Source of the DNA: Nitrospinota bacterium
GTDB lineage: Bacteria > Nitrospinota > Nitrospinia > Nitrospinales > VA-1
DNA length: 64,000 nucleotides
Assembly (NCBI GenBank): GCA_027619975.1
Contig: JAQCGX010000004.1
Span: forward strand, 25,508-89,507
Reading direction: 5' to 3'
The position numbers and the translations under genes are program-made. A model generated the notes under the pieces. The model ran no database searches, had not been told where the DNA came from, and saw only the letters and a list, made by a program, of their open reading frames with translations. Positions 3,295 to 43,302 of the stretch are shown here, piece by piece (positions within the stretch are counted from its first letter, which is position 1; the number at the start of each line of letters is the position of its first letter).

Positions 3295-3672
3295 ATGGAC
3301 GAAAATGAATGGTCAAACAAAATAATTGGCGCGTGTATTGAAGTTCATAAATCCTTGGGGCCGGGATTATTGGAAAATGTTTACCAGAATTGCCTGGCAC
3401 GAGAATTTTCTTTGCAAAATATTCCTTTTCAAAAGGAAGTGTCCAAGCCAGTTGAGTATAAAGGTGTGTTAATGGATTGCGATCTTCGTCTCGATTTCCT
3501 GATAGATAATAAGGTCGTCGTTGAACTAAAAGCGGTTGAAAAGATTTTACCCGTCCACAAAGCTCAGGTATTGACCTATTTAAAACTAACAGGTTGTAAA
3601 CTTGGACTGCTGGTAAATTTCAATGTCTCGGCTCTTAAAGATGGCGTTGAAAGAATTGTTCTTGGCCTTTAA
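3295..3672 (+). CDS. GxxExxY family protein (PD-(D/E)XK-like)
   Basis: 125 aa. Begins ...IIGACIEVHKSLGPGLLENVYQNCL (the G-x-x-E-x-x-Y signature) and ends ...GLLVNFN; typical size for the family. Confidence 0.85.
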   Translation: MDENEWSNKIIGACIEVHKSLGPGLLENVYQNCLAREFSLQNIPFQKEVSKPVEYKGVLMDCDLRLDFLIDNKVVVELKAVEKILPVHKAQVLTYLKLTGCKLGLLVNFNVSALKDGVERIVLGL

Positions 3673-3674
3673 CC

Positions 3675-3700
3675 CTTTGCGTTCTTTGCGTCTTTGCGGT
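3675..3700. repeat. right arm of 26-bp inverted repeat (3 x CTTTGCG)
   Basis: CTTTGCGTTCTTTGCGTCTTTGCGGT starts 2 nt after the TAA stop of the GxxExxY gene. Confidence 0.85.
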
Positions 3701-3767
3701 AGAAATAGGGTTTAGTCTTCATATTTGCCCATAAACACTTCTTCATTAAAAGAAGAAAACATTCAAA

Positions 3768-4166
3768 ATGGTCATTTTTAGAACATCTAAAGAGACACTT
3801 TCAAAAGTTGTGGCGAATTGTAAACATGCTCTTGAAGTGAGGCCTGCAAAATTAAATTTTGGAGATATTATTCTAATTGCCCAGACGATAGACTCCTTGG
3901 ACTGTGGCAAGAAGCCAATTCGCTACCGAATGGAGTTTGTAAATTGTTATGAAGATAGAGAAGGGTTGAGTGAGAGAATTTGGGGAAGGCGTTGGAAGTA
4001 TATCATTGAAGGGAAAAACTGTTGCGAACTAAACAAACCATTTGATATTAGAAAAATCCCACATCTCAATACAAAAAAATATGAACGGGGTGGACCCATC
4101 GTTTATGTTGACCCTGATGATATAAAAAAATTAGAAGACTTGGGCTACTTGGAAGTTAAAAGCTAG
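3768..4166 (+). CDS. hypothetical protein (visibly AT-rich orphan)
   Basis: 132-aa ORF with an ATG start in a stretch much more AT-rich than its neighbours. No motif recognised. Confidence 0.45.
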   Translation: MVIFRTSKETLSKVVANCKHALEVRPAKLNFGDIILIAQTIDSLDCGKKPIRYRMEFVNCYEDREGLSERIWGRRWKYIIEGKNCCELNKPFDIRKIPHLNTKKYERGGPIVYVDPDDIKKLEDLGYLEVKS

Positions 4167-4185: not shown

Positions 4186-4725
4186 TCACTCCCCAGGCAG
4201 GATGTTGGTGAACTGGTACTCTTCCACAGGAAAACCGATGGTCATGTCGAATTTGGTTTCACCCCATTGCTCGATGGATAAAAACTTCGTACTTTTTTCA
4301 TCGCTGAAGTCCCACACCACAAAAGGCATTCCCTCCTCCGCATCGCCCTTAAAATACTCGCCGATATCGTCCGTCTCGACATAAAACGTTTCCCCCTCGA
4401 ACACCACTTCCTCCGGCGGGTCTTCATGTTCGACGATGTGCCCGGCAATGTCGCCATCCAACTTGAAGATGGGCTTTTTCTGGCTCAGAGACCATGCGAC
4501 CTCGCCGTCTTCTTCCCCGCGTTCGAGGAACCAGGATTCGGACCCCAGCTGCAATTCCCACTCATCGGTCACTCCGCCCTCTTCCCACTCGTAGTGATTA
4601 CAGGCTGTGACCCGATACGTTTTCATATCGTAGTCCACCAGGAAACCGGGCTTGAGTTTGGAGAGCACCAGGTCCTCCAGCTGAGGTTGCTCCTCTTTTT
4701 TCTTTTTAAAAAAGTCGAATGCCAT
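4186..4725 (-). CDS. DUF4178 domain protein (YjfK-position gene of the PspA operon)
   Basis: 179 aa. The pattern LKPGFLVDYDMKTYRVTACNHYEWEEGGVTDEWELQLGSESWFLERGEEDG fits DUF4178 as I remember it. The start lies 1 nt after the pspA stop. Confidence 0.65.
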   Translation of the reverse strand: MAFDFFKKKKEEQPQLEDLVLSKLKPGFLVDYDMKTYRVTACNHYEWEEGGVTDEWELQLGSESWFLERGEEDGEVAWSLSQKKPIFKLDGDIAGHIVEHEDPPEEVVFEGETFYVETDDIGEYFKGDAEEGMPFVVWDFSDEKSTKFLSIEQWGETKFDMTIGFPVEEYQFTNILPGE

Positions 4726-4726
4726 G

Positions 4727-5437
4727 TCAGGAGATATTCATTTTGGCTTTCAAAGCGGCCAGACTGTCGGACACCGCCGGCAGTTTTGACCCCGAATCGA
4801 GCGCCTTGTTAATTTCATCATCGATGCTGGTGCTGGTGTCCGCAATTTCTCCGTAGGCCTTGGCCAGGGATTCATCCTCTTCCACCCGGGAACGCATTTT
4901 TTCCAGCATGGCAATGGTTCCACCCGCATCGACCTGGGCGATTTGCGCGTTCAGCTTTTTAGTGGCGGCGGCGGTTTTGGCACGGGCTCTCAGGGTGATC
5001 AGATCGTTTTCATAACGCTGGATGGTGGACCGCAATTTATCCACATTTTTCTGCAGTTGGTTCGACATCCCTTCCTGCGCCGTCATTTCCGTGTGCAACC
5101 GGACGGCTTCTTTGGAGGCGGTTTCTTTTCTCGACAACGCTTCCGTGGCCAGACGTTCGGCCTCGGCGGAATCCAGAGAACCGCCCTGCCCTTGCTGTAA
5201 CAATGCCATCGCTTTATGCTCGTAATCCGCCGCAAGTTTTTTCTTGTTCTCGGCGTCGTTGCGCATACGGATGACGATGCCTTTGACTTGCGCCAGGCTC
5301 TGCATGGATATGGTCAGATCTTTTTTCAGATCGCGGATGCCCTGCTCGGTCATTTTGATAGGATCTTCAATCTGATCCACCAGCGAATGAGCTTCGGCTT
5401 TGCCCATCCGGAAAATTCTGGAAAGTAATCCTGCCAT
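4727..5437 (-). CDS. pspA: PspA/IM30 family protein
   Basis: 236 aa. N-terminus MAGLLSRIFRMGKAEAHSLVDQIEDPIKMTEQGIRDLKKDL and a long coiled coil are typical of PspA/IM30/Vipp1. Confidence 0.9.
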   Translation of the reverse strand: MAGLLSRIFRMGKAEAHSLVDQIEDPIKMTEQGIRDLKKDLTISMQSLAQVKGIVIRMRNDAENKKKLAADYEHKAMALLQQGQGGSLDSAEAERLATEALSRKETASKEAVRLHTEMTAQEGMSNQLQKNVDKLRSTIQRYENDLITLRARAKTAAATKKLNAQIAQVDAGGTIAMLEKMRSRVEEDESLAKAYGEIADTSTSIDDEINKALDSGSKLPAVSDSLAALKAKMNIS

Positions 5438-5482
5438 GTTGAATCTCTCCTTTTATATCAATTTATATCGATGAATTCGGTT

Positions 5483-5878
5483 TTATTTGGATGCGGCAAA
5501 CGCAAGCAACTCTCCGCCATATTCTCCCAGCGCCAGACTCAAAGCATCAATGCTACCTTCCAGCTCGTTGCGGTCGAGGTTTTCCAGTTGCAGGGTGTCG
5601 CGAAACAGGAGGGTGTTGCCGCTGTCATCCAGAACAAAAGCGCCGTGGACCAGAGTGCGGTTGATTTGCAATAAGCGTTTGTAGATTTCAGCGGTTCCGT
5701 TCGGTAACGGCAGAATCACCTGTTCTAAAATCACGATCGGATCTTCGCAATCGATGACCAGATGCTTGACGCCTCGATCTTCATCATTCACGACCACCAG
5801 TTCTTCGGCGGCATCTTCCTGGTCAATGGTGAACCCCATGTCCAGCAAATACTCTTTAACGTTTTCAAAATTGGCCAT
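5483..5878 (-). CDS. YbjN/DUF2170-like PspA-associated protein
   Basis: The track ORF starts at GTG 5896, but the ATG at 5878 is preceded by GAGGAG. The acidic ~131-aa protein sits at the position of E. coli yjfI, directly upstream of the PspA paralogue. Family assignment is from memory. Confidence 0.55.
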   Translation of the reverse strand: MANFENVKEYLLDMGFTIDQEDAAEELVVVNDEDRGVKHLVIDCEDPIVILEQVILPLPNGTAEIYKRLLQINRTLVHGAFVLDDSGNTLLFRDTLQLENLDRNELEGSIDALSLALGEYGGELLAFAASK

Positions 5879-5888
5879 TCTTAACTCC

Positions 5889-6245
5889 TCATCCACGTTT
5901 TGACAGTTCTTTGTCTAATAGTCGGTAACTTTCGGTCAACCGCAGGGTCAATTCTCCGGCGACTTTTCTTTTCTCAGGATCGGCATCGTGCAGATCCGGA
6001 TGATATTTTTTCAGCAATCGTTTCCAGGCGGACTTTACCGCTGTACGGTTAGAACCCGGCTGGATTTCCAGATTCGCGTAATATTGGATGAACGGGTCTG
6101 AGGTCACAGGTGCTGACTCAAACGCTTCCCGCGTATCAAAATTAAAAGGCGTTTCGTTCGGATTGTAGACAGTTTTTTCCTCTGTCCGCTTTCCCATGAA
6201 ATCGTTCAAATTGGCACGGGCGATATCGACCAGTCGTTTCATCAT
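5889..6245 (-). CDS. J-domain (DnaJ-like) protein
   Basis: 118 aa. C-terminal YYANLEIQPGSNRTAVKSAWKRLLKKYHPDLHDADPEKRKVAGELTLRLTESYRLL is a J-domain with an HPD motif. There is a 4-nt overlap with the upstream gene, and the stop overlaps the next gene. Confidence 0.8.
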   Translation of the reverse strand: MMKRLVDIARANLNDFMGKRTEEKTVYNPNETPFNFDTREAFESAPVTSDPFIQYYANLEIQPGSNRTAVKSAWKRLLKKYHPDLHDADPEKRKVAGELTLRLTESYRLLDKELSKRG

Positions 6246-6778
6246 GATAGCGTTGCCCCGGCGTGAACATACAGATTGGTTTTACTGATGATGGACAACC
6301 CATCTTCCGGGTAGGTGTGAATGGTAACAAACCCGTTCGCGGCCAGATCGACCGCCACCCCGGTGAAAGGTTGCGCCGAGTTTGAGAGTTTTGCGGCCTC
6401 AAAACGGTGCGTCAATATTTCCATGGGTGGAATCTCTCCCAGCGAGGAGAGAAAACCCTCCATATCCTCGAACAACCGCGGGACCATTTCGATCGTCACC
6501 GCATACTGAATGTTTCCCACTTGATATTCTCTGCAATAATTTTCCCCGGCCTGCAAGGGGAAATGGTCCAAAGGCTTGTCCGTCGTTTCATCGGATGAAC
6601 AGGCGATGAATTCTGTCAGCGCCACGCCGCCCCCCCGGCTGATCACCCGGTGGCTCTTCCCTATAATACAGGTGTCGAGAACAACACGGTTGTCCAGGGT
6701 CCACTGGCCCTGATTGAAAATGGTGACCGGGCAATCCGGGACGCCTGCAAACAGGCTGAAATAAACGGGGTCAGACAT
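6242..6778 (-). CDS. hypothetical protein, first gene of the PspA operon
   Basis: 178-aa ORF with an ATGA overlap onto the J-domain gene. No motif recognised. Confidence 0.6.
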   Translation of the reverse strand: MSDPVYFSLFAGVPDCPVTIFNQGQWTLDNRVVLDTCIIGKSHRVISRGGGVALTEFIACSSDETTDKPLDHFPLQAGENYCREYQVGNIQYAVTIEMVPRLFEDMEGFLSSLGEIPPMEILTHRFEAAKLSNSAQPFTGVAVDLAANGFVTIHTYPEDGLSIISKTNLYVHAGATLS

Positions 6779-6841
6779 AAACGAGCAAACAATAGAAAAT
6801 CAATAGGGCTCCCAAGCGATAATGGGTGTATCAAGTTAAAA

Positions 6842-6870
6842 ATCCTACTTGTCGGGGATGGTTCTGTCAA
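6842..6870 (-). promoter_or_regulatory. candidate sigma70 promoter of the psp operon
   Basis: The minus strand reads TTGACA-17 nt-TAGGAT, about 64 nt upstream of the ATG at 6778. Confidence 0.35.
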
Positions 6871-6964: not shown

Positions 6965-7185
6965 GGGCACCTCTAAAAATTATTTTATTACAGGAAATTG
7001 AACATTGTACAAGGATTTCATATATCAGTGGCACGGGCGACCTACCTTAAAGTTTATGCGGAAGTGCGGAATTTAATTCCGCCTTTCTAGCCCGTGCGGA
7101 CAGGCTGGAAAGCCTGTCCCACTAAAACAAAGCCATCTCCTTAAATTGACGATTAGGAGCATTTAGTCAATTTTTAGAGATGCCT
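6965..7185 (-). mobile_element. MITE copy A (221 bp, inverted orientation)
   Basis: Ends are GGGCACCTCTAAAAATT ... AATTTTTAGAGATGCCT. It is flanked by TTAA (6961-6964) and TTAA (7186-7189). It is about 90 percent identical to the reverse complement of copy D. Confidence 0.85.
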
Positions 7186-7231: not shown

Positions 7232-8449
7232 ATGGAATACCGACGCTTTGGCCAAACCAATGAAATGCTTTCCGTCATCACCTTAGGTGGCATGCGCTTC
7301 ACTCATGGCTGGCTGCCTCCCCGCGACCGCCTGCCTCTGGAGTCTATCAAGAATTGTCTCGAAACCACACGCCAGGCATTGCAGTTGGGAATCAACCACA
7401 TCGAGACCGCGCATGGGTATGGCAAGAGCGAGCATCTCTACGGTGTAGCGCTCAAAGAATTAGCGGTTCCCCGCGACCAGTACAGGATGATGACCAAGGG
7501 AGCGCCGATGACCGCCGACGAGACCAAGGAACTTGTTGAGAGCCAGCTCACGGGCCTGCAACTGGACTTCGTGGATTTCTACGGATGGCATGGCATCAAT
7601 AATAAAGAACGATTACAAGCGGCTGTACGAACCGGAGGGCCAGTTGAAACGCTCCACCGGCTAAAGGAACAAGGACTGGTTCGTCATATCGGTTTTTCCA
7701 CCCACGGCCCACTGGATATCATTCTGCAAGCGCTGAATACCAACTTGTTCAGCTTCGTCAATTTACACTTTTATTACTTTTTTCAGCGCAATTTGCCAGC
7801 GGTCCAGTTGGCTGGCGAGAAGGATATTGGCGTTTTTATCATTTCTCCCAATGAAAAAGGCGGTCTCTTGTGGAAACCTTCGGAAAAGGTCAAGCAGGCG
7901 ACGCAACCGCTAACGGCCATCCAATTCAGCGGCCGGTTTTGCCTGAGCCACCCTGCAGTCACCACCCTGAGCATGGGCATGCACGAGCCGGAACATTTCC
8001 CTCAGAACCTGGCGATATTGAACGATGAAACGTATTTCTCCGAAGAAGATACAACAATTAAAACCACAATGGACGCCTCATTAAGCTCTGTTCCCGGCCT
8101 GTGCACCCTTTGCGACCAATGTCTGCCCTGCCCTGAAGACATCAATATTCCGGAAATTCTCCGCTTCAGAAATCTGCTGAAAGCCTATGACATGGTGGAT
8201 TACGGTAAATTCCGCTACAACATGCTGGAGGGCAAGGGCCACTGGTTTCCTGGCACCTTTGCTTTTAATTGCACCGAATGCGGCGACTGTCTGCCCCGAT
8301 GCCCGGAAAACCTGAAAATTCCGCAATTGTTGCTTCAAACCCATCATGAGCTGTTTGACCGCAAGGCCTATATCAAGAATAACATCATGGGTGTTGCACG
8401 CGTTGCCTATCAATTTCTGCGAAAAATTTTTAGCCCGGTTAGTTCTTGA
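7232..8449 (+). CDS. aldo/keto reductase with C-terminal 4Fe-4S dicluster domain
   Basis: 405 aa. N-terminal AKR pattern (INHIETAHGYGKSEHLYG). C-terminal CTLCDQCLPCP and CTECGDCLPRCP ferredoxin-type motifs. Confidence 0.85.
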   Translation: MEYRRFGQTNEMLSVITLGGMRFTHGWLPPRDRLPLESIKNCLETTRQALQLGINHIETAHGYGKSEHLYGVALKELAVPRDQYRMMTKGAPMTADETKELVESQLTGLQLDFVDFYGWHGINNKERLQAAVRTGGPVETLHRLKEQGLVRHIGFSTHGPLDIILQALNTNLFSFVNLHFYYFFQRNLPAVQLAGEKDIGVFIISPNEKGGLLWKPSEKVKQATQPLTAIQFSGRFCLSHPAVTTLSMGMHEPEHFPQNLAILNDETYFSEEDTTIKTTMDASLSSVPGLCTLCDQCLPCPEDINIPEILRFRNLLKAYDMVDYGKFRYNMLEGKGHWFPGTFAFNCTECGDCLPRCPENLKIPQLLLQTHHELFDRKAYIKNNIMGVARVAYQFLRKIFSPVSS

Positions 8450-13934: not shown

Positions 13935-16900
13935 TTACAGGATCGACGCTTCTTTCAGCAAGAGCATACGTTTGCAACCCTCCAGCAGTTGCTCGGTGTT
14001 CTGATAAGAATCATTTTTTTTGAGGACGGCCTGTAAATGCGGGATGGCTTTTTGGCACCGAAGGGTCTTGGCGTACATCTCGCCCAGAACATATTGAAGA
14101 TGCATATCTTCCCTATCCACCATACTGTAACGGGTCGCATAATCCAGCACGTTGCCCGGCTCCCCCAGAGCGCGGTAACTGAACACGATGCTTTGCAGAA
14201 CCGGAATATTCAAAGGATCCTTATCCAAAGCGACCAGTGAATATTCCAACGCTTTCAAATAATCCTTCTTCATGTTGTAATACTGGGCTGCTGAAAGAAT
14301 CAGGCTTGGGTTTTCCGGATCTTTTGCCAGTTTCTTCAAGAGTTCGATCAGTCCTATTTCCTGCATGACAGAACTCACTTGCCGAGGGTCTTTTTTGGCG
14401 ACGTTTTCAAAACTTTTCTTGGCTCGATCGATTTCGCCCAGCTCCAGCAGATTGTATCCCATATATAAATCCGCAAAGCTTCGGTTGGGAGCGCTCTGGG
14501 GAACTTTTTCTAAAATATCCATGCTGTTTTTGTGTTGACCCATCTGGTAATAGGCATGGCCAAGGTTCAGCAGGGCTTCGATATTTTCAGGATTTCTATC
14601 CACTTCCTGGGCCAGACGGGCGACCTGCCGTTTTCCCGCCTGCAGGTGATAGCGAACGAGGTTATTGTCATCCGCCAGGGAAAGGGCCTTCAAGAGTTGC
14701 CCGCGATTGCTGTACATAACCCCGCGCTGATACAGGTCCATCATCTCATAGTAGCGTTTCAGGGCCGCGCGGTCGCTCTCTGAAAGATGGGTGATTCGCC
14801 GGGCAATATCTTCAAAGGGGGTTCGGTTAAAAACATATTTCTCTTTGCCCGCCGTTCCAATGGTGGCGTCAAGGTCGAGGTAAAATTCAATGCTGGGACG
14901 GTTGTCGGTGATCTCGTCATAGCCTGCTGAAACGGCTTCGATCTGGTCTTCAAGGAACCAGATATTGCTCAGAAAAGAATACGCGTTTTCTATTTCGATG
15001 TCGGCGAGAGCTTCCCGGACAACGGGTTCCTGCAACCGTTGTTGCAATTTTTTAAAATCCAGGTTGATCGGCTGATCCGAGCCAATGATGAGCATTTCGT
15101 TGGCAACCGACATCCAGGCGATCGCATGCGGAAACACGTCATGAAAGGTTTTAAAATGCATCGCGACTTCTTTTTCTCCCTGACTGTGCAACGGAATCCA
15201 TTGCGCCACGATGCCCCCTGGTTTCAGCCGTTTTTGGGTCGCTTGATAATATTCCCTGGTGTACAGGTTGACTGTAAATGCCGTACGCGGCGGCGGCGGT
15301 TCCGAGGTGATGACGTCATACTTTTTGCCCGTGGTCAAAAGATGGTTCCTGCCATCCTGTAAAATAAATTTAACCTTCGGATTGTTGAGCACATCGTGGT
15401 TCTCCGAGGCGAATATCTTTCCGGCCCGAATCACGCCGGGGGACAAATCCACACTGTCCACGGAACGCACGCGGGGATGAATTCCGGCGGCGCCGGTCGT
15501 CTGCCCCGTGCCAAAACAAACCACCAGGACATCTTCCGGCGCATCGACCAGTAAAATCGGGACGTGGGCCAGGAGCTTCATATAGCGCGAGGCGATGAAG
15601 TTCGACGCCGACATGGAAATCCCGTTGGTGATCAATCGCTTGGCCTCCGGGTCCAGGATGCCGTAATTGTCTCTGAAAACGGCGACCGTATCCGTCAACC
15701 CCTCTTCGAAATACATGAGCGCCTTGGGGCTGCGCTGTCCCCCACTGTCCCGCATGAAGAACTTGTCCAGCAGATTGTCTGGAATCGCAAAGTTTAGAAA
15801 AAGAATGGTGACGGCAAAAACGACCGCAAGCCCCCGGCGTATCGCCGTTCCCAAATAGGAACCCTTAAGAAAAAGTAAAACTCCAAGAAGCAGGTTCAAC
15901 GAAGCGACGAGCATCAGACTTTTTTGACTTCCCAACTCGGGCAGAACCCAAAAACCCATAAATAACGAACCGAAAATTGCGCCGAGAGTATTGGAGGCGT
16001 AAATCTGCCCGGTGCCCTTGCCAACATGTTCATAGCCGCCGGAAACGATTTTAATCAGAATGGGCAAGCTCATGCCAAAACACAGAGTGGGGATCAGCAT
16101 CAGGCTTGCGGAATCTACAAAATAATGCCACAGGGTGACGGCAGGGTCGGTCAAGCGATAGCTGTCCCAAGGCGCAGAAAGCAGGCTTTCCATATTGTAG
16201 AGAGAACCGATCACGAACAAACCGATCACGACTTGCAGGCAAATCAGAACGGTTCTCAAGTTGGTGACACGGGAAACCACCGGAATGACCAGCAAGCTTC
16301 CCAGGACGATTCCCAACAGAAAGACCGCCAACATCATGCTGAAGGAATACACCGTGCTGGAAATGCTGAACACCAGAAGCCGGGTCCACACCACCTCGTA
16401 AGCCAGAGCGGTGAACCCGCAAATCAAGCTGACGCCCATCCAGTATTTTTGTTCGCAGTTTACGGAAATCGAGGGCAAAGAAAATTTTGGCAGCCTGACC
16501 TTGAACACACTCCCGCCTCCCGAGTCCTGGTAAACACGCAGGGCGCTGACTCCAATAAACAAATTCACCAAAGCCGCCAGCAGGACCGTCTGCAAAACAC
16601 CCAGGACACTGATCAATAAAAATCCCGTGAGCAGACATCCCACCGCCGCTCCGAGAGTATTGATGGCGTATAAAATTCCGATTTGGGTTCCTAACCGGGC
16701 GTTGTTCGTCACATAGTATTTACTGATGATTGGCAAGGTGGCGCCCATCAGGGTGGTCGGAATAAAAATCAGCAGGAAGGCCAGAACCGCTTTAATTGCA
16801 TTCTGAATAATTATGGAATCCGGGAGCCAGACGTGAATCCAGGCATAAAAAGAGGAAAAATTCGCCAAAAGCAAGGACAGAAGACCGCAGATAACGAATA

Positions 16901-17204
16901 GCGCAATCTCGACCCATCCATAGATCAGGAGCGGCGTATGAGCCGAGCCTTGAGACGGACGGATATCCATTTCACCCGCCTTTTCAACGGGTTCTTCCCA
17001 GGGGCCGGGCAGTCTGTCGATCGCCGCGCCAAACAGGTAACTGCCAAAACCCAGGCCCGCCATGAACGCCGCCAGCACCACGGACACGGAGAATACCGTA
17101 TGTCCGAACACCAGGGTGAGCATTCGGGTCCAGACAATCTCATAGATCAGGGCAGTAATACCGGAACAAAAGAAAAGAAAATAGATGACCGGGGAACGTT
17201 TCAT
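13935..17204 (-). CDS. fused polytopic membrane / spermidine synthase-like / TPR protein
   Basis: 1089 aa. Two similar multi-TM halves (...ALIYEIVWTRMLTLVFGHTVFS... and ...ALAYEVVWTRLLVFSISSTVYS...), a class I MTase/aminopropyltransferase core (VLVVCFGTGQTTG...DVITSEPPPP), and C-terminal TPR repeats. Confidence 0.8.
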   Translation of the reverse strand: MKRSPVIYFLFFCSGITALIYEIVWTRMLTLVFGHTVFSVSVVLAAFMAGLGFGSYLFGAAIDRLPGPWEEPVEKAGEMDIRPSQGSAHTPLLIYGWVEIALFVICGLLSLLLANFSSFYAWIHVWLPDSIIIQNAIKAVLAFLLIFIPTTLMGATLPIISKYYVTNNARLGTQIGILYAINTLGAAVGCLLTGFLLISVLGVLQTVLLAALVNLFIGVSALRVYQDSGGGSVFKVRLPKFSLPSISVNCEQKYWMGVSLICGFTALAYEVVWTRLLVFSISSTVYSFSMMLAVFLLGIVLGSLLVIPVVSRVTNLRTVLICLQVVIGLFVIGSLYNMESLLSAPWDSYRLTDPAVTLWHYFVDSASLMLIPTLCFGMSLPILIKIVSGGYEHVGKGTGQIYASNTLGAIFGSLFMGFWVLPELGSQKSLMLVASLNLLLGVLLFLKGSYLGTAIRRGLAVVFAVTILFLNFAIPDNLLDKFFMRDSGGQRSPKALMYFEEGLTDTVAVFRDNYGILDPEAKRLITNGISMSASNFIASRYMKLLAHVPILLVDAPEDVLVVCFGTGQTTGAAGIHPRVRSVDSVDLSPGVIRAGKIFASENHDVLNNPKVKFILQDGRNHLLTTGKKYDVITSEPPPPRTAFTVNLYTREYYQATQKRLKPGGIVAQWIPLHSQGEKEVAMHFKTFHDVFPHAIAWMSVANEMLIIGSDQPINLDFKKLQQRLQEPVVREALADIEIENAYSFLSNIWFLEDQIEAVSAGYDEITDNRPSIEFYLDLDATIGTAGKEKYVFNRTPFEDIARRITHLSESDRAALKRYYEMMDLYQRGVMYSNRGQLLKALSLADDNNLVRYHLQAGKRQVARLAQEVDRNPENIEALLNLGHAYYQMGQHKNSMDILEKVPQSAPNRSFADLYMGYNLLELGEIDRAKKSFENVAKKDPRQVSSVMQEIGLIELLKKLAKDPENPSLILSAAQYYNMKKDYLKALEYSLVALDKDPLNIPVLQSIVFSYRALGEPGNVLDYATRYSMVDREDMHLQYVLGEMYAKTLRCQKAIPHLQAVLKKNDSYQNTEQLLEGCKRMLLLKEASIL

Positions 17205-38739: not shown

Positions 38740-40317
38740 TTAGTACATATCCCAATCGCCCTTACGGTAATATTTGAGAAGAATGTGGTTGAACTGGGTA
38801 TTTACCTCGACGCCCGCAGACCGTTCGAACAGACCTTTACCGAAATGGGTCATGGAAGTCATTGCCTCGCGGTTTAAAAACCGCGTCTCCAACCCGGAAA
38901 ATTCTAGGCGCAGTAAATTTTCCTTGAGCCGATCCGCGCTCATCGCCTCGTTCTTCACTCCCAGGTTCCAGCCCCACTCCCCCATCGTCGGGATAGCGTT
39001 TTGATAAGGAACCACCGAAAACCCCGCGGCTTCCATACTTTTTTTGATACATAAAAATGCTTCTGGAGAATACAGAGGGCTGGTGCTCTGGGTCACCAGC
39101 ACGCCAAAAGGTTTCAAATGCTTATTCGCAAGTTTATAGAATCCCAACGAGTACAAAAGAGAAAGGGAGACGGATTTCGGATCGGGCAGGTCCACAATGA
39201 TGGCGTCATAAAGTTTTACGGAATTATTAATGAACTGGTAGGCATCCTGATTGATAATTTCCACCCGAGGATCGTTGAACGACCCCTTGTTGACCTTAAG
39301 AAAAATCTCATTTGACTTTGCAAGCCGGGTCATGGCCGGGTCCAGATCGACAACCGTGATTTTTTCGACATCGGGGTATTTCAACAATTCCCGCGCCGCC
39401 AGCCCGTCCCCGCCTCCCAGAACCAGGATGTCTCTGCGCTCTTTCAGTAGACTGACCGCAGGATGAATCAACGGCTCATGGTAACGGTGTTCATCATAAG
39501 TGCTGAACTGGATACTGCCGTTCAAAAACAGCCAGTGGTCGTCCTTCCATTGAGTGACAACGATTTTCTGGTAACGGGTCTGTTCCTCATAAATAATTTT
39601 ATCTTTGTACTTGTGCTGTTCGCCATAAAGGATGATGGGTTTGGCGAAATAAGCCGCGCCGGCGATGACAACGAGCAGGGCTGAAAAAATGACCTGTAGA
39701 GTTTTAGCCCATTTGAGCAATCCAGAAAATTTCCACAGGATCATTCCCGCTACCAGCAGGTTGAGGCCTCCCAGAAGAACAGGCGTGTAGGTCAGCCCTA
39801 AAAACGGCAAAAGCACGAAGGCAAACAACGCCCCTCCCGCCAGCGACCCGTAATAGTCAAACTCCATCACCGAAGAAATGTTGACCCTGAGCGGTTCGTG
39901 TTTTTCATTGATCCTGGTGACCAATGGAATTTCAAGTCCGGTCAAAAACCCAATCAGACAGGCGACGCCATAAATCACCAGCCCATTGTGAACGGTGAAG
40001 GCGGCGATCCAGAAAGAAAAAATTGCCGAAAAGGTGCAAAATAATGACAGGCCAAATTCAGCGCAGACATAACGGTCCAGAAGATTTTCTGATAATTTTC
40101 GACTTTGGCGGCTCCCGAGTCCCATGGAAAACAGCATGAGGGAAATGACTGCGGTCCATTGAAAAATGGTGTTGCCAAGCAGGTAACTGGCCAGGGTGGC
40201 CAGTGTGTATTCCGTCACCATCGCCGCGCAACCGGTGGCGAACATACAAATTTTCAGAATCAGGCTCAGTTGCGAGCGAGAGGCCTCAGGAGAATGGTTG
40301 GTCGTCGTGGATTGCAT
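38740..40317 (-). CDS. membrane-bound polyamine aminopropyltransferase (spermidine synthase-like)
   Basis: 525 aa. About 7 N-terminal TM helices, then the SpeE core (VLGGGDGLAARELLKY...VDLDP...IIVDLPDP). Confidence 0.8.
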   Translation of the reverse strand: MQSTTTNHSPEASRSQLSLILKICMFATGCAAMVTEYTLATLASYLLGNTIFQWTAVISLMLFSMGLGSRQSRKLSENLLDRYVCAEFGLSLFCTFSAIFSFWIAAFTVHNGLVIYGVACLIGFLTGLEIPLVTRINEKHEPLRVNISSVMEFDYYGSLAGGALFAFVLLPFLGLTYTPVLLGGLNLLVAGMILWKFSGLLKWAKTLQVIFSALLVVIAGAAYFAKPIILYGEQHKYKDKIIYEEQTRYQKIVVTQWKDDHWLFLNGSIQFSTYDEHRYHEPLIHPAVSLLKERRDILVLGGGDGLAARELLKYPDVEKITVVDLDPAMTRLAKSNEIFLKVNKGSFNDPRVEIINQDAYQFINNSVKLYDAIIVDLPDPKSVSLSLLYSLGFYKLANKHLKPFGVLVTQSTSPLYSPEAFLCIKKSMEAAGFSVVPYQNAIPTMGEWGWNLGVKNEAMSADRLKENLLRLEFSGLETRFLNREAMTSMTHFGKGLFERSAGVEVNTQFNHILLKYYRKGDWDMY

Positions 40318-40348
40318 GCAAAACCGGGAGAATACTAAGGGGCGTGGG

Positions 40349-41194
40349 TTACAGACACCAGATAATCAAAAAAGAGGAACCGATGTAGGACACGGCTTCC
40401 AGGTAGGCGGCGCCCACATTGGGCTTTTCCTGATTCACCAGTTCATCCGCCAGCCTGCGACTGGGCAAAAGCACCCGGTCGGTGATCATCCTTGCGGCGG
40501 GTAAGAGCAGGAGGCCTAAAAAAACAAACCAGATAAAAGTCATGAGATTGCTTTCCCAGGAGACAAAATTTTCCGCCGAAGCGGCGCGCATCAGATTGCC
40601 GATGGCGATCAAGGCTCCGGCAAAACCCACACCCACCGCGACGTTATCCTTTTCTATATGTTCGTGGATATCGTAATGCGTGATCAGGTTGTAATAGTGG
40701 CCGATCAACACCAGGATGCCCTGACCCAACGCCCAGAAAACCAGGGCGGTGTAGATATTGCCCCCGGTCCCGTACACGGCTCCGAAAATATTCAATCCGG
40801 AAGCAACAAATATCGCAAACTCCACCACTCCGGTGCCGCAGTTTTGGTCATCCAGAATTTCTTTGCGAATGTTAAACTTGTAAAGAATGAAGCGATCGTT
40901 GATCCAGGCGGATATATTGAGCAGGAAAATGGCGAGCGGTCCGTAGACCAGTAAGTCGATCAGATCCTCAACCAAGCCCGCCGAAGGGCCTGCAATCACC
41001 CCGCCAATGGCCAGGATCAAGCCCAGGTAATAACCACCCATGACCAGGGCGAGCGCGGCGTTGTCCTCTTCAACTAACTCGTGCGGGATGTTGTACCCCA
41101 CCCGACACAGGCGGAATACGCCGTGCCCAATGGCTAAGAGCACCAGGCAGGCGAGCAAATAAATAACAGAGGTTAATAAATTATCCAGCCACAT
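40349..41194 (-). CDS. DUF350 (YjfL-like) membrane protein, duplicated domain
   Basis: 281 aa, polytopic, with two similar halves carrying Gly-rich helices (…LGLILAIGGVIAGP… and …VGVGFAGALIAIGNLM…). Family assignment is from memory. Confidence 0.55.
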   Translation of the reverse strand: MWLDNLLTSVIYLLACLVLLAIGHGVFRLCRVGYNIPHELVEEDNAALALVMGGYYLGLILAIGGVIAGPSAGLVEDLIDLLVYGPLAIFLLNISAWINDRFILYKFNIRKEILDDQNCGTGVVEFAIFVASGLNIFGAVYGTGGNIYTALVFWALGQGILVLIGHYYNLITHYDIHEHIEKDNVAVGVGFAGALIAIGNLMRAASAENFVSWESNLMTFIWFVFLGLLLLPAARMITDRVLLPSRRLADELVNQEKPNVGAAYLEAVSYIGSSFLIIWCL

Positions 41195-41244
41195 TGTTAT
41201 GCGGACCTATAAAAATTGATGTTTTTTGACTTCTGCAATCGCCC

Positions 41245-41958
41245 TCATTTCCCAAAACTCATTCCCCGGCTTCGAAAAGAACTTTTGCTTCTGCCCACCC
41301 TTTGGTTGATCTTGTTTTTGAATCGGCTTTGCGACTGACTCATTTTCGCCGACTTGCGTGCATAAAAATCCGGTTTTTGTGTTTTAGTCACCGACCCGTT
41401 GGTTCCATACTGATTATTACTACCGAAATAAGGTCGCCCCCCGGATAGGTTGGTGGCATAATTATTATAATGGTTGCGGTTCATCCCGAACCCCGCCCAG
41501 TTCATCACCTGAGACATAAGCATGTATTTTCCGTAAAACTCCCACATGCTGCCGCCGCTCTCATCTTGCCGCCAACGACCGTATTCAGGATTGCCCACGT
41601 ATTGATAGCCATTGGGAATGGGTGTGTTGGTCGCCTTACCGTCAGGGGTCTTCGTTGCCAGGGCCATCCCAAGATACGGCTCGTTTTTTTTGTAGAAGGG
41701 TTCCGTCACTTCCACAAAGGGACCGACTTCCTTAGTCTCGCCCTTATCGATGCGGTATTGATGATAATAGGACGGTACAAAATTTCCTTCTTCCCGCATA
41801 TCATTCAAAATAATGGCATACTCTTTTTCAGCCGCGAGTTCCTTTTGCAGTTTTTCCACCGGATTGCTGAACCCGCCGCAACCCGCAAAGGTCAGCGCCG
41901 CAAACAAGCATAGGATGAATGCTAAAAAGATCCGAGCTGGGAAATGATGAGTTCTCAT
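41245..41958 (-). CDS. lipoprotein, G/N/Y-rich with basic tail (YjfM/DUF1190-position)
   Basis: The start is taken at ATG 41958 (MRTHHFPARIFLAFILCLFAALTFAGCGG, with a lipobox). The 96-codon upstream extension in the track has no support. Confidence 0.55.
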   Translation of the reverse strand: MRTHHFPARIFLAFILCLFAALTFAGCGGFSNPVEKLQKELAAEKEYAIILNDMREEGNFVPSYYHQYRIDKGETKEVGPFVEVTEPFYKKNEPYLGMALATKTPDGKATNTPIPNGYQYVGNPEYGRWRQDESGGSMWEFYGKYMLMSQVMNWAGFGMNRNHYNNYATNLSGGRPYFGSNNQYGTNGSVTKTQKPDFYARKSAKMSQSQSRFKNKINQRVGRSKSSFRSRGMSFGK

Positions 41959-42201: not shown

Positions 42202-43302
42202 ATGAATCCATTGATTTGGAAACGCATCAAGCGCTTGCTTCTCCACCGCGAGCTCCGATATCCCCTCACTCTTATATTAATACTTCTGGGAATGATCCTC
42301 ATCTTTGCGACGGTCTTTTCCCTGTTTGAAGAAGGCGCCAGCTTTACCGACGGGCTGTGGACCGCTTACATCACGGTGACCACCATCGGCTACGGTGATT
42401 TTTCCGCGCAAACCCCGCAAGGAAGAGTGATCACTGTACTCACATCTTTATTCGGAATCGGGTGCTTTGCGGTATTCACCGGTATCATTGTTGAGAAGGC
42501 TCTTCAAAGGAGGATGAAAAAAGTGAAAGGCGAAGGACAATACACGCGAGAAGGCCATCTGGTGATTGTGAATGTTCCGGCTTACGATGAAATCCTGGAG
42601 TTAATGAATGAACTGGACCTCAGCCCCGACTTGAAGGAAATTCCACGCGTGGTTTTGGCGGAATCTCTTCCTGGGGGCGACAAGGAAATTCCAGATTTTC
42701 TCTCCAGCAGGATCGACGGCTTCATCATGGGGCTTCCAGCGTCGGGAGAAACTTTGGGTCGAGTCAATATCGGAAAGGCAAAAGCCTGCCTGATCATGTC
42801 GTCTCCCCATGACCCGAAGCTGGACGACACCAACACGCTGACTGCTGGACTCATCGAAAAAATCTGTCCGCAGGTGATCACCATCATCGCCTGTAGCCGA
42901 CCGGAGACGATGAAAAACTTGAAGGCCTTCAATATCGATGGCGGCATCAATGCCACCGAATTGAACGTGGGATTGCTGGTTCAGGAACTGGAAGACCCCG
43001 GCGTGTTTGAGGTCTACAGTCAATTGTCATCCAACGCGGGAGGCAGCCAGATCTACATCAGCCGAACGCCGATGGGAAACTGGGACGGAGATATCAATCA
43101 GCTCACAATCCGGCAAATAAAAATCTCAGCGATTCATCTGGACCTGCCGACGGAGATTATCGGCATCAAGCGCGAATCCAATGAACAATTATTGCTCAAC
43201 CCTGCAAACGATGAGCGGATGCTGCCAACCGACCGGCTGGTTTATGTCGCAAAACAACGGTTTGACTGGCAGAAAAAAAGTGCGGAAATTTTAAACGCAT
43301 AA
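42202..43302 (+). CDS. potassium channel protein (2-TM pore plus cytoplasmic RCK-like domain)
   Basis: 366 aa with the selectivity filter TVTTIGYGD between two TM helices. Confidence 0.8.
   Translation: MNPLIWKRIKRLLLHRELRYPLTLILILLGMILIFATVFSLFEEGASFTDGLWTAYITVTTIGYGDFSAQTPQGRVITVLTSLFGIGCFAVFTGIIVEKALQRRMKKVKGEGQYTREGHLVIVNVPAYDEILELMNELDLSPDLKEIPRVVLAESLPGGDKEIPDFLSSRIDGFIMGLPASGETLGRVNIGKAKACLIMSSPHDPKLDDTNTLTAGLIEKICPQVITIIACSRPETMKNLKAFNIDGGINATELNVGLLVQELEDPGVFEVYSQLSSNAGGSQIYISRTPMGNWDGDINQLTIRQIKISAIHLDLPTEIIGIKRESNEQLLLNPANDERMLPTDRLVYVAKQRFDWQKKSAEILNA

Follow-up and report, generated by a model that had tools for sequence, protein, structure and literature searches.

A stretch of 64,000 nucleotides from a Nitrospinota bacterium (assembly GCA_027619975.1, contig JAQCGX010000004.1, positions 25,508 to 89,507 of the forward strand), referred to below as the window, carries on its minus strand a compact operon of five genes, g1 to g5, one of which encodes a protein of the PspA/IM30 family. 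A first-pass annotation, made from the letters alone, had placed five tightly spaced minus-strand genes here, and all of these open reading frames (ORFs) are confirmed. Judged by the names of near-identical database proteins, the window belongs to Nitrospinaceae. In order of transcription, and numbered by position in the window, they are:

g1, 6242-6778, minus strand: DUF2617 protein of 178 aa (Pfam score 26.7 bits against a cut-off of 22.3).
g2, 5889-6245, minus strand: class-C J-domain protein of 118 aa (Pfam DnaJ, 33.5 bits against a cut-off of 27.8).
g3, 5483-5878, minus strand: chaperone-like protein of the CesT_Tir_1 family (YbjN clan), 131 aa, starting at ATG 5878 (Pfam CesT_Tir_1, E = 4.9e-52; YbjN, E = 2.5e-8).
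g4, 4727-5437, minus strand: PspA/IM30 protein (bacterial ESCRT-III superfamily) of 236 aa (Pfam PspA_IM30, E = 7e-47).
g5, 4186-4725, minus strand: DUF4178 protein of 179 aa, cytosolic and beta-rich (Pfam E = 8.5e-17).

All five proteins exceed the curated (gathering) cut-offs of Pfam. The profiles bear out the J-domain, PspA/IM30, DUF4178 and YbjN-like calls of the first-pass annotation and amend it in two places. Its 178-residue "hypothetical" g1 keeps that length and gains a Pfam name, DUF2617. The narrower suggestion that the YbjN-like protein belongs to DUF2170 fails, since g3 is a CesT_Tir_1 protein with no DUF2170 match.

The genes are closely packed. g1 and g2 share a 4-nt overlap (ATGA), g4 and g5 are separated by a single nucleotide (TGAcATG), and a 45-nt gap with AAGGAG inside it lies between g3 and g4. 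These three junctions had been read correctly at the outset; the fourth, a stop/start overlap of g2 and g3, had not. The overlap exists only if g3 begins at GTG 5896 (5483-5896), and that start was rejected on the lengths of its homologues: the best 120 of the 4069 hits are about 128-136 aa long, and most of these 120 measure 130-132 aa. Given these lengths, the true start of g3 is almost certainly ATG 5878, which sits 10 nt past the g2 stop with GGAG ahead of it. No recognisable Shine-Dalgarno sequence precedes the ATG of g1 (positions 6779-6795, …TTGTTTGCTCGTTTATG); g3 has GGAG and g4 has AAGGAG.

Upstream of g1 lies a promoter-like site:

TTGACA-17-TAGGAT, 6842-6870, minus strand: sigma-70 type, matching at 10 of 12 positions, with the -10 hexamer ending 63 nt ahead of the g1 ATG.

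This candidate had been noted on first inspection (it reads from 6870 to 6842) and gains weight from the recurrence of its hexamers in relatives. In the related locus L007 both hexamers are identical and in the same place while the spacer has diverged; L010, L011 and L012 carry TTGACA..(C/T)AGGAC upstream of the DUF2617 gene; and L008 and L015 share the -10 hexamer TAGGAT. The site is therefore conserved in Nitrospinota relatives despite diverged spacers. Promoter-like sites as such are not enriched in the region, with three observed against 4.3 expected from shuffled sequence. The statement that no sigma-54 element is present also stands: no GG-N10-GC site was found upstream of g1, and the GAFTGA motif of sigma-54 activators is absent from all frames of the window. 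Rfam gave no match in the operon region, its only match in the window being a tRNA elsewhere. We rejected a riboswitch or other leader structure, as the predicted folding of the 57-nt leader is not better than that of shuffled sequence, and likewise internal terminators, as terminator-like sites are no commoner than chance and those within the operon span fall inside coding sequence. A divergent intergenic region of 453 nt separates g1 from an aldo-keto-reductase/4Fe-4S gene (7232-8449, plus strand). In the middle of that region is a perfect 9-bp inverted repeat, GGACAGGCT-TTCC-AGCCTGTCC (7098-7121, minus strand), possibly an operator or else a repeat element.

We aligned CesT_Tir_1 proteins and scanned one genome per species, which gave 323 relatives, and kept the best 80 loci. 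Since these are the loci closest to the query, the sample is biased. Nine gene families were mapped onto the kept loci with hidden Markov models (HMMs) built for this analysis. PspA lies immediately 3′ of the CesT_Tir_1 gene in 72 of 74 evaluable loci, and DUF4178 follows PspA directly in 53 of 69 and occurs somewhere in the locus in 65 of the same 69. This CesT-PspA-DUF4178 core is found in at least eight phyla, with loci from Nitrospinota, Nitrospirota, Planctomycetota (Scalindua), Desulfobacterota, Latescibacterota, Acidobacteriota, Gemmatimonadota, Binatia and others. In 25 of 78 loci, which come from Nitrospinota, Acidobacteriota, Nitrospirota, Desulfobacterota and other groups, the J-domain gene immediately precedes CesT; the same holds for L004-L006 and L090. 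Most loci of the class lack DUF2617. Within Nitrospinota the arrangement is nearly constant: all five genes are present in 11 of 12 evaluable species genomes, the J gene in each of the 12 evaluable loci, and DUF2617 ahead of the J gene in 11 of these. A relative whose g1 is only 49% identical retains the five genes in unchanged order, the 4-nt g1/g2 overlap and the same kinds of neighbour upstream. The five-gene order is thus not confined to this genome; it is conserved across Nitrospinota, and the CesT-PspA-DUF4178 core is conserved across many phyla.

The core has been described before. Ravi et al. 2024 (mSystems, PMC11237479) found a CesT/Tir-PspA dyad at the centre of several conserved gene neighbourhoods. 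One of them, represented by Shewanella oneidensis SO_3765, includes DUF4178, DUF350, a Ctha_1186 lipoprotein and a spermidine-synthase-like protein fused to transmembrane (TM) segments. The same study lists in its supplement a PspA-less variant in Mycobacterium tuberculosis, Rv2597-Rv2601, made up of TM+DUF4178, DUF2617, DUF4247, DUF350 and TM+Spermine_synth (PMC11237479). The present operon is a member of this CesT/Tir-PspA-DUF4178 network, a class already described and functionally uncharacterised by experiment; because the class is published, the module cannot be called undescribed. What is new is the α0-type J-domain gene, the class itself being known from comparative genomics. The word "DnaJ" does not occur in the searchable text and supplement of Ravi et al. 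or in Popp et al. 2022, the figures of which are not searchable. The first-pass annotation had regarded two of the five genes as mere additions to a PspA module; this view does not survive, as DUF2617 belongs to the published network and the J gene recurs across phyla with a PspA-like N-terminus.

The J-domain protein g2 consists of an N-terminus resembling helix α0 of PspA and Vipp1, a disordered linker and a J domain:

g2 N-terminal helix, residues 1-17 (MMKRLVDIARANLNDFM), 6195-6245, minus strand: resembles PspA/Vipp1 helix α0.
g2 J domain, residues 50-118, 5892-6098, minus strand: Pfam DnaJ above cut-off, with H82-P83-D84 encoded at 5994-6002.

An AlphaFold2 model of g2 contains a helix at residues 2-17, disorder at 18-52 and a J domain at 53-117 with a predicted local distance difference test score (pLDDT) above 95. 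The same plan characterises the family, in which 114 homologues of 105-160 aa combine a conserved N-terminal motif (approximately M-x-[ILF]-x-R-[LI]-x-x-[IL]-x-R-A-[NHQ]-[LVI]), a variable low-complexity linker and a J domain; residues Y81, H82, P83 and D84 of g2 are invariant throughout. By its profile match and intact HPD motif g2 belongs to the J-domain proteins, and a role as an Hsp70 co-chaperone is predicted. Its scores fall far below the NCBIfam cut-offs for DnaJ_bact (27.9 against 377), DjlA (22.1 against 162) and ActJ (25.9 against 150), and by such cut-offs it would not be classed as a DnaJ, CbpA, DjlA or ActJ equivalog.

The resemblance to α0 was examined with a profile built from the first 28 residues only of 41 g2-family members and searched against 177,635 distinct PDB sequences. 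Eleven of the 12 matches at E ≤ 10 are Vipp1, PspA or IM30; nine of them align at residues 1-22, and two IM30 chains align at residues 23-42. The best match is Synechocystis Vipp1 (E = 0.0026), and E. coli PspA is found at E = 0.11. Run against the 7556 ORFs of the fetched loci, the same profile ranks J proteins first, followed by the neighbouring PspA proteins, matched at their N-termini. The J proteins that lie beside CesT-PspA in other phyla start with sequences such as MSLFRRLGRIV, MSIFSRLINILRA and MSILSRVTGWLRS. In PspA itself, α0 has been described as a suggested membrane anchor (bioRxiv 10.1101/2025.06.13.659447).

Within the core, g3 has 4069 homologues, 52-78% identical across phyla. 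Its match to PF05932 (CesT), at E = 4.4e-4, is below the cut-off; no type III secretion system (T3SS) genes were seen in the mapped loci, where the constant neighbour of the CesT_Tir_1 gene is PspA. g3 has no Pfam match to DUF2170 at E ≤ 0.1 and no BLASTP alignment to E. coli YjfI. g4 matches PspA_IM30 (PF04012) over residues 3-232 with 160.3 bits against a cut-off of 33.9. BLASTP aligns it over its full length with E. coli PspA (24% identity, E = 2e-6), with LAxLKAKM common to both C-termini, and also with the E. coli paralogue YjfJ (29% identity, E = 3e-5). An assignment of g4 to the YjfJ type was rejected, as it is equally distant from the two. By sequence, g4 is a member of the PspA/IM30 family and is predicted to form homo-oligomers (rings or rods) that remodel membranes.

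Canonical partners of PspA were not found. A tblastn search of the window with E. coli PspB and PspC gave nothing at E ≤ 1, with BLAST sensitivity limited for such small proteins, and a search with PspF gave nothing at E < 1e-3. The first-pass view of a PspF-independent locus without PspB, PspC or PspF is upheld by these searches. The sigma-54 promoter, PspF, PspB and PspC, the hallmarks of the canonical Psp regulon, are all missing from what we found at this locus and in the window.

For g5, searches with the single sequence and with a 19-sequence profile found no solved relatives of DUF4178. Its best local alignment to E. coli YjfK spans 51 aa (E = 0.034) and represents no meaningful similarity. 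Before its beta-rich domain g5 has a basic-aromatic N-terminus (4672-4725), here MAFDFFKKKK, which is conserved in the class with the consensus F-x-K-K. Conservation between phyla is unusually high for the DUF4178 proteins of the class (mean column identity 53%), as it also is for CesT_Tir_1 (52-78% identity).

The Pfam DUF2617 profile matches 25 of 25 members of the g1 family. The AlphaFold2 model of g1 is all-beta (pLDDT 87, predicted TM-score 0.83), and across 37 diverse sequences G40-x-S42-H43, E56 and H154-x-Y156-P157 are invariant. Conserved His and Glu residues in DUF2617 were reported by Ravi et al. 2024 (PMC11237479). The invariant residues and the modelled fold fit the "enzymatic beta-sandwich" proposed in that study, and g1 is a putative enzyme. 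Few proteins belong to the g1-type subfamily, which accounts for 43 representative clusters in a set of 1.84 billion proteins.

One candidate fold for g1 came up in these searches. A Foldseek search of the model against the PDB gave nothing at E ≤ 0.001, with TM-scores of 0.27-0.39, and the only matches combining high probability and low root-mean-square deviation (rmsd) were proenzymes of Thermotoga maritima S-adenosylmethionine decarboxylase (AdoMetDC; probability 0.91-0.97, rmsd 4.4-5.5 Å over about 85 columns). phmmer returned a weak match to the Aquifex aeolicus AdoMetDC over the HTYPE segment (E = 0.94). Narrow and wide DUF2617 family profiles yielded no AdoMetDC match in the PDB or Pfam. 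The self-cleavage motif of AdoMetDC is a Glu-Ser pair, and no such pair was found beside the HTYPE segment of g1. Because the family profiles lend no support to these weak phmmer and Foldseek hints, an AdoMetDC-like fold for DUF2617 stays a low-confidence lead.

Three Pfam-confirmed DUF2617 genes in Acidobacteriota (L073:14028-14771, L081:15021-15494 and L083:13534-14055) adjoin genes for spermidine-synthase-like and FAD amine-oxidase proteins and sit a few kb from J-CesT-PspA. They link DUF2617 to the PspA-operon system a second time, independently of the present operon.

The window also holds the membrane components of the published neighbourhood, about 34 kb from the PspA operon:

38740-40317, minus strand: spermidine-synthase-like protein of 525 aa with an N-terminal multi-TM domain (Pfam Spermine_synth, E = 1e-42).
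40349-41194, minus strand: DUF350 (YjfL-type) membrane protein of 281 aa (Pfam DUF350, E = 9e-51).
41245-41958, minus strand: lipoprotein of about 237 aa from an internal start, lipobox LTFAGC (matched by an HMM built from L004-L006).

The lipoprotein is homologous to a gene without a Pfam match found alongside DUF350 in related operons. Most other Nitrospinota (L008, L009 and L012-L015) carry this trio convergent to the operon, with a lipoprotein of about 240 aa; the synthase homologue is immediately convergent to DUF4178 in L009 and L012-L015 and lies about 2.4 kb beyond DUF4178 in L008. The CesT-PspA-DUF4178 core thus co-occurs with the membrane trio, which has moved some 34 kb away in this genome. 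The first-pass annotation, which noted only that PspB/C/F-type partners are absent, was incomplete on this point.

The slot that the trio occupies in those relatives is filled here (3295-4166, plus strand) by a low-GC patch (0.38-0.44) with two ORFs, a GxxExxY gene of PD-(D/E)XK nuclease fold (TIGR04256, E = 6e-45) and one of 132 aa that matches nothing in Pfam or NCBIfam. In L001 and L007 the slot past DUF4178 is filled by a DNA methylase/NgoMIV/Vsr/GmrSD cassette. With a low-GC insert here, that cassette in L001 and L007 and the trio in others, the stretch past DUF4178 has the look of a hotspot for insertions. Divergent from the trio is a K+ channel-like gene (42202-43302, plus strand) with Ion_trans_2, Slo-like RCK and Castor_Poll_mid domains, and a K+ channel of similar kind follows DUF350 in L005; among the genes of related operons, Ravi et al. 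2024 name a ligand-gated K+ channel (PMC11237479). Close to the PspA operon, a 1089-aa protein (13935-17204, minus strand) has a Spermine_synth domain at residues 540-667 and C-terminal TPR repeats. The distant relative L001 also has this second, unusual spermidine-synthase-like protein close to its operon, there with a length of 1092 aa.

PspA, Vipp1 and ESCRT-III polymers repair and reshape membranes, and the eukaryotic and archaeal ESCRT-III polymers are recycled by the Vps4 ATPase. To our knowledge, most bacterial PspA systems have no associated ATPase. How assembly is regulated in PspA homologues lacking an associated AAA+ ATPase is described as unknown by Ravi et al. (PMC11237479). We read the present locus as a sigma-70-driven, PspF-independent CesT/Tir-PspA-DUF4178 operon whose J protein brings DnaK to PspA assemblies, and give this reading as a whole slightly better than an even chance. 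PspA (g4) would be the effector and would polymerise on the inner face of the membrane, while the CesT-type dimer (g3) may hold or deliver PspA or a partner peptide and DUF4178 (g5) may serve as a cytosolic adaptor to the membrane module. The α0-like helix of g2 would follow PspA α0 to the membrane surface or to an α0 docking site in the polymer. There the HPD-containing J domain would turn on the ATPase of DnaK, and Hsp70 would assemble or disassemble PspA polymers. This step would supply the energy input, as Vps4 does for ESCRT-III and HSP70B-CDJ2-CGE1 does for chloroplast VIPP1. By analogy with CDJ2 and HSP70B, we infer that g2 may target DnaK to PspA. DUF2617 (g1) would be an accessory, enzyme-like protein of a polyamine-linked network.

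Several observations weigh against this reading. The roles given to g1, g3 and g5 derive from gene context alone, no dnaK gene lies within the window, and two thirds of the CesT-PspA-DUF4178 loci have no J gene, so that the J gene is not essential to the core. The similarity between g2 and its cognate PspA is slight: the g2 N-terminal profile finds cognate PspA N-termini at E = 0.004 to 1 in a local hmmsearch, and hhalign aligns the J family with cognate PspA N-terminus to N-terminus at an E value of 0.15, which is not significant. The hydrophobic moment of g2 residues 2-19 (0.43) does not rise above shuffles (p ~0.15). A strongly amphipathic N-terminal helix was rejected on these grounds, and a membrane-anchor role is likewise not established for g2. 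Among the homologues tested the moment ranges from 0.28 to 0.60, and several score like Vipp1. α0-like J proteins are also encoded at L088:7001-7333 and L089:7001-7453, where neither CesT nor PspA genes lie close by; of eight J-homologue contexts inspected, two lack a neighbouring PspA. The α0-type J family is accordingly wider than the operon.

These last loci would be expected if g2 were a general, membrane-tethered recruiter of Hsp70 resembling DjlA, with an N-terminus that does nothing but anchor it and a function in membrane-protein quality control during envelope stress, for instance on the DUF350 and spermidine-synthase-like partners. The description of PspA α0 as a membrane anchor, the faint NCBIfam DjlA match of g2 (E = 9e-5) and its weak similarity to the cognate PspA N-terminus point the same way. 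We nevertheless regard such a recruiter as unlikely, because the N-terminal profile retrieves PspA and Vipp1 specifically and not other amphipathic helices, the J gene stands immediately 5′ of CesT-PspA in 25 loci from several phyla, and the helix of g2 in this window shows no significant amphipathicity. The chemistry of the neighbourhood suggests another alternative, in which the operon serves mainly metabolism or modification by polyamine (aminopropyl) chemistry; DUF2617, possibly with an AdoMetDC-like fold, would be its catalytic component and partner the spermidine-synthase-like enzyme of the membrane, with PspA, CesT, DUF4178 and the J protein as scaffold and assembly factors for the complex. 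The invariant Ser, His, Glu and His of DUF2617, its recurrence in the M. tuberculosis Rv2597 operon and, in Acidobacteriota, beside genes for spermidine-synthase-like and amine-oxidase proteins, and the T. maritima and A. aeolicus AdoMetDC matches (Foldseek probability 0.91-0.97; phmmer E = 0.94) all speak for it. The Foldseek search that gave those probabilities returned no match at E ≤ 0.001 and TM-scores of only 0.27-0.39, however, the DUF2617 family profiles match no AdoMetDC in the PDB or Pfam, the HTYPE segment has no Glu-Ser pair beside it, and DUF2617 is missing from most loci of the class. We consider this module quite improbable.

The first-pass annotation had itself proposed that g3, g4 and g5 parallel yjfI-yjfJ-yjfK of E. 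coli, with two extra genes added and no PspB/C/F-type partners. In E. coli, too, a pspA paralogue comes after a gene for a small chaperone-like protein, and YjfI (DUF2170) is assigned to the CesT/Tir superfamily by Ravi et al. (PMC11237479). The parallel is weak. YjfI is a DUF2170 protein (E = 1.5e-44) that BLASTP does not align with g3, YjfK belongs in Pfam to DUF2491 and g5 to DUF4178, and g4 is no closer to YjfJ than to PspA. YjfK, YjfM and YjfC have no match in the window, which does contain DUF350, spermidine-synthase-like and lipoprotein genes (38740-41958), and the two appended genes are conserved members of the network. We therefore take the proposal to be largely refuted and very improbable.

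Recruitment of DnaK to PspA assemblies through g2 thus remains our preferred reading. If it is true, recruitment of Hsp70 by helix mimicry would answer how the assembly of bacterial PspA is regulated where an ATPase is lacking, and it would link bacterial PspA systems to the one experimentally known case, chloroplast VIPP1. A broader proposal goes further: small α0-J proteins would be dedicated adaptors that bring Hsp70 to PspA polymers, DnaK and not an AAA+ ATPase would remodel PspA in many bacteria, and the chloroplast CDJ2-HSP70B-VIPP1 system would be one instance of an ancient and widespread bacterial arrangement. We advance this generalisation tentatively, at clearly less than even chances. 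The locus also ties DUF2617 and DUF4178, two families of no known function with homologues in M. tuberculosis, to one conserved network.

Comparison with known systems sets out what is shared and what is particular to this operon. Like E. coli PspFABC, it has an effector of the PspA/IM30 family; unlike it, it was found to have no PspF, sigma-54 promoter, PspB or PspC. With E. coli yjfIJKLMC it shares a small gene of CesT-superfamily type followed by a PspA paralogue, as well as DUF350 and polyamine-related chemistry in the neighbourhood. In the yjf cluster, DUF2170 stands where CesT_Tir_1 is found here and DUF2491 where DUF4178 is, the lipoprotein and the spermidine-synthase-like protein are replaced by DUF1190 and the ATP-grasp protein YjfC, and neither a J-domain gene nor DUF2617 is present. 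M. tuberculosis Rv2597-Rv2601 likewise combines DUF4178 and DUF2617 with DUF350 and a membrane spermidine-synthase-like protein, but its DUF4178 is membrane-anchored and it has no CesT/Tir-PspA dyad and no J gene.

A possible functional parallel is that of Chlamydomonas, in which HSP70B-CDJ2-CGE1 assemble and disassemble VIPP1 rods in vitro (Liu et al. 2005, 2007, as cited in PMC12798727). Both pair a dedicated J-domain co-chaperone with a polymer of the PspA/IM30 family, here by gene linkage, and through such a pairing Hsp70 is proposed to drive assembly and disassembly. The Chlamydomonas system is eukaryotic and plastid-borne, and its link was found biochemically and not by gene linkage; unlike CDJ2, the bacterial g2 is a minimal protein of 118 aa. 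The nearest relative by gene content is the class of Ravi et al., represented by SO_3765, with which the operon shares a CesT/Tir-type gene followed by pspA and then DUF4178, the presence of the membrane trio in the genome (its lipoprotein being a candidate counterpart of the Ctha_1186 protein) and the absence of PspBCF. It departs from that class in its chaperone, which is CesT_Tir_1 (PF22550) and not DUF2170, in a trio that is unlinked and lies about 34 kb off, and in the DUF2617 and α0-type J-domain genes that have been added upstream.

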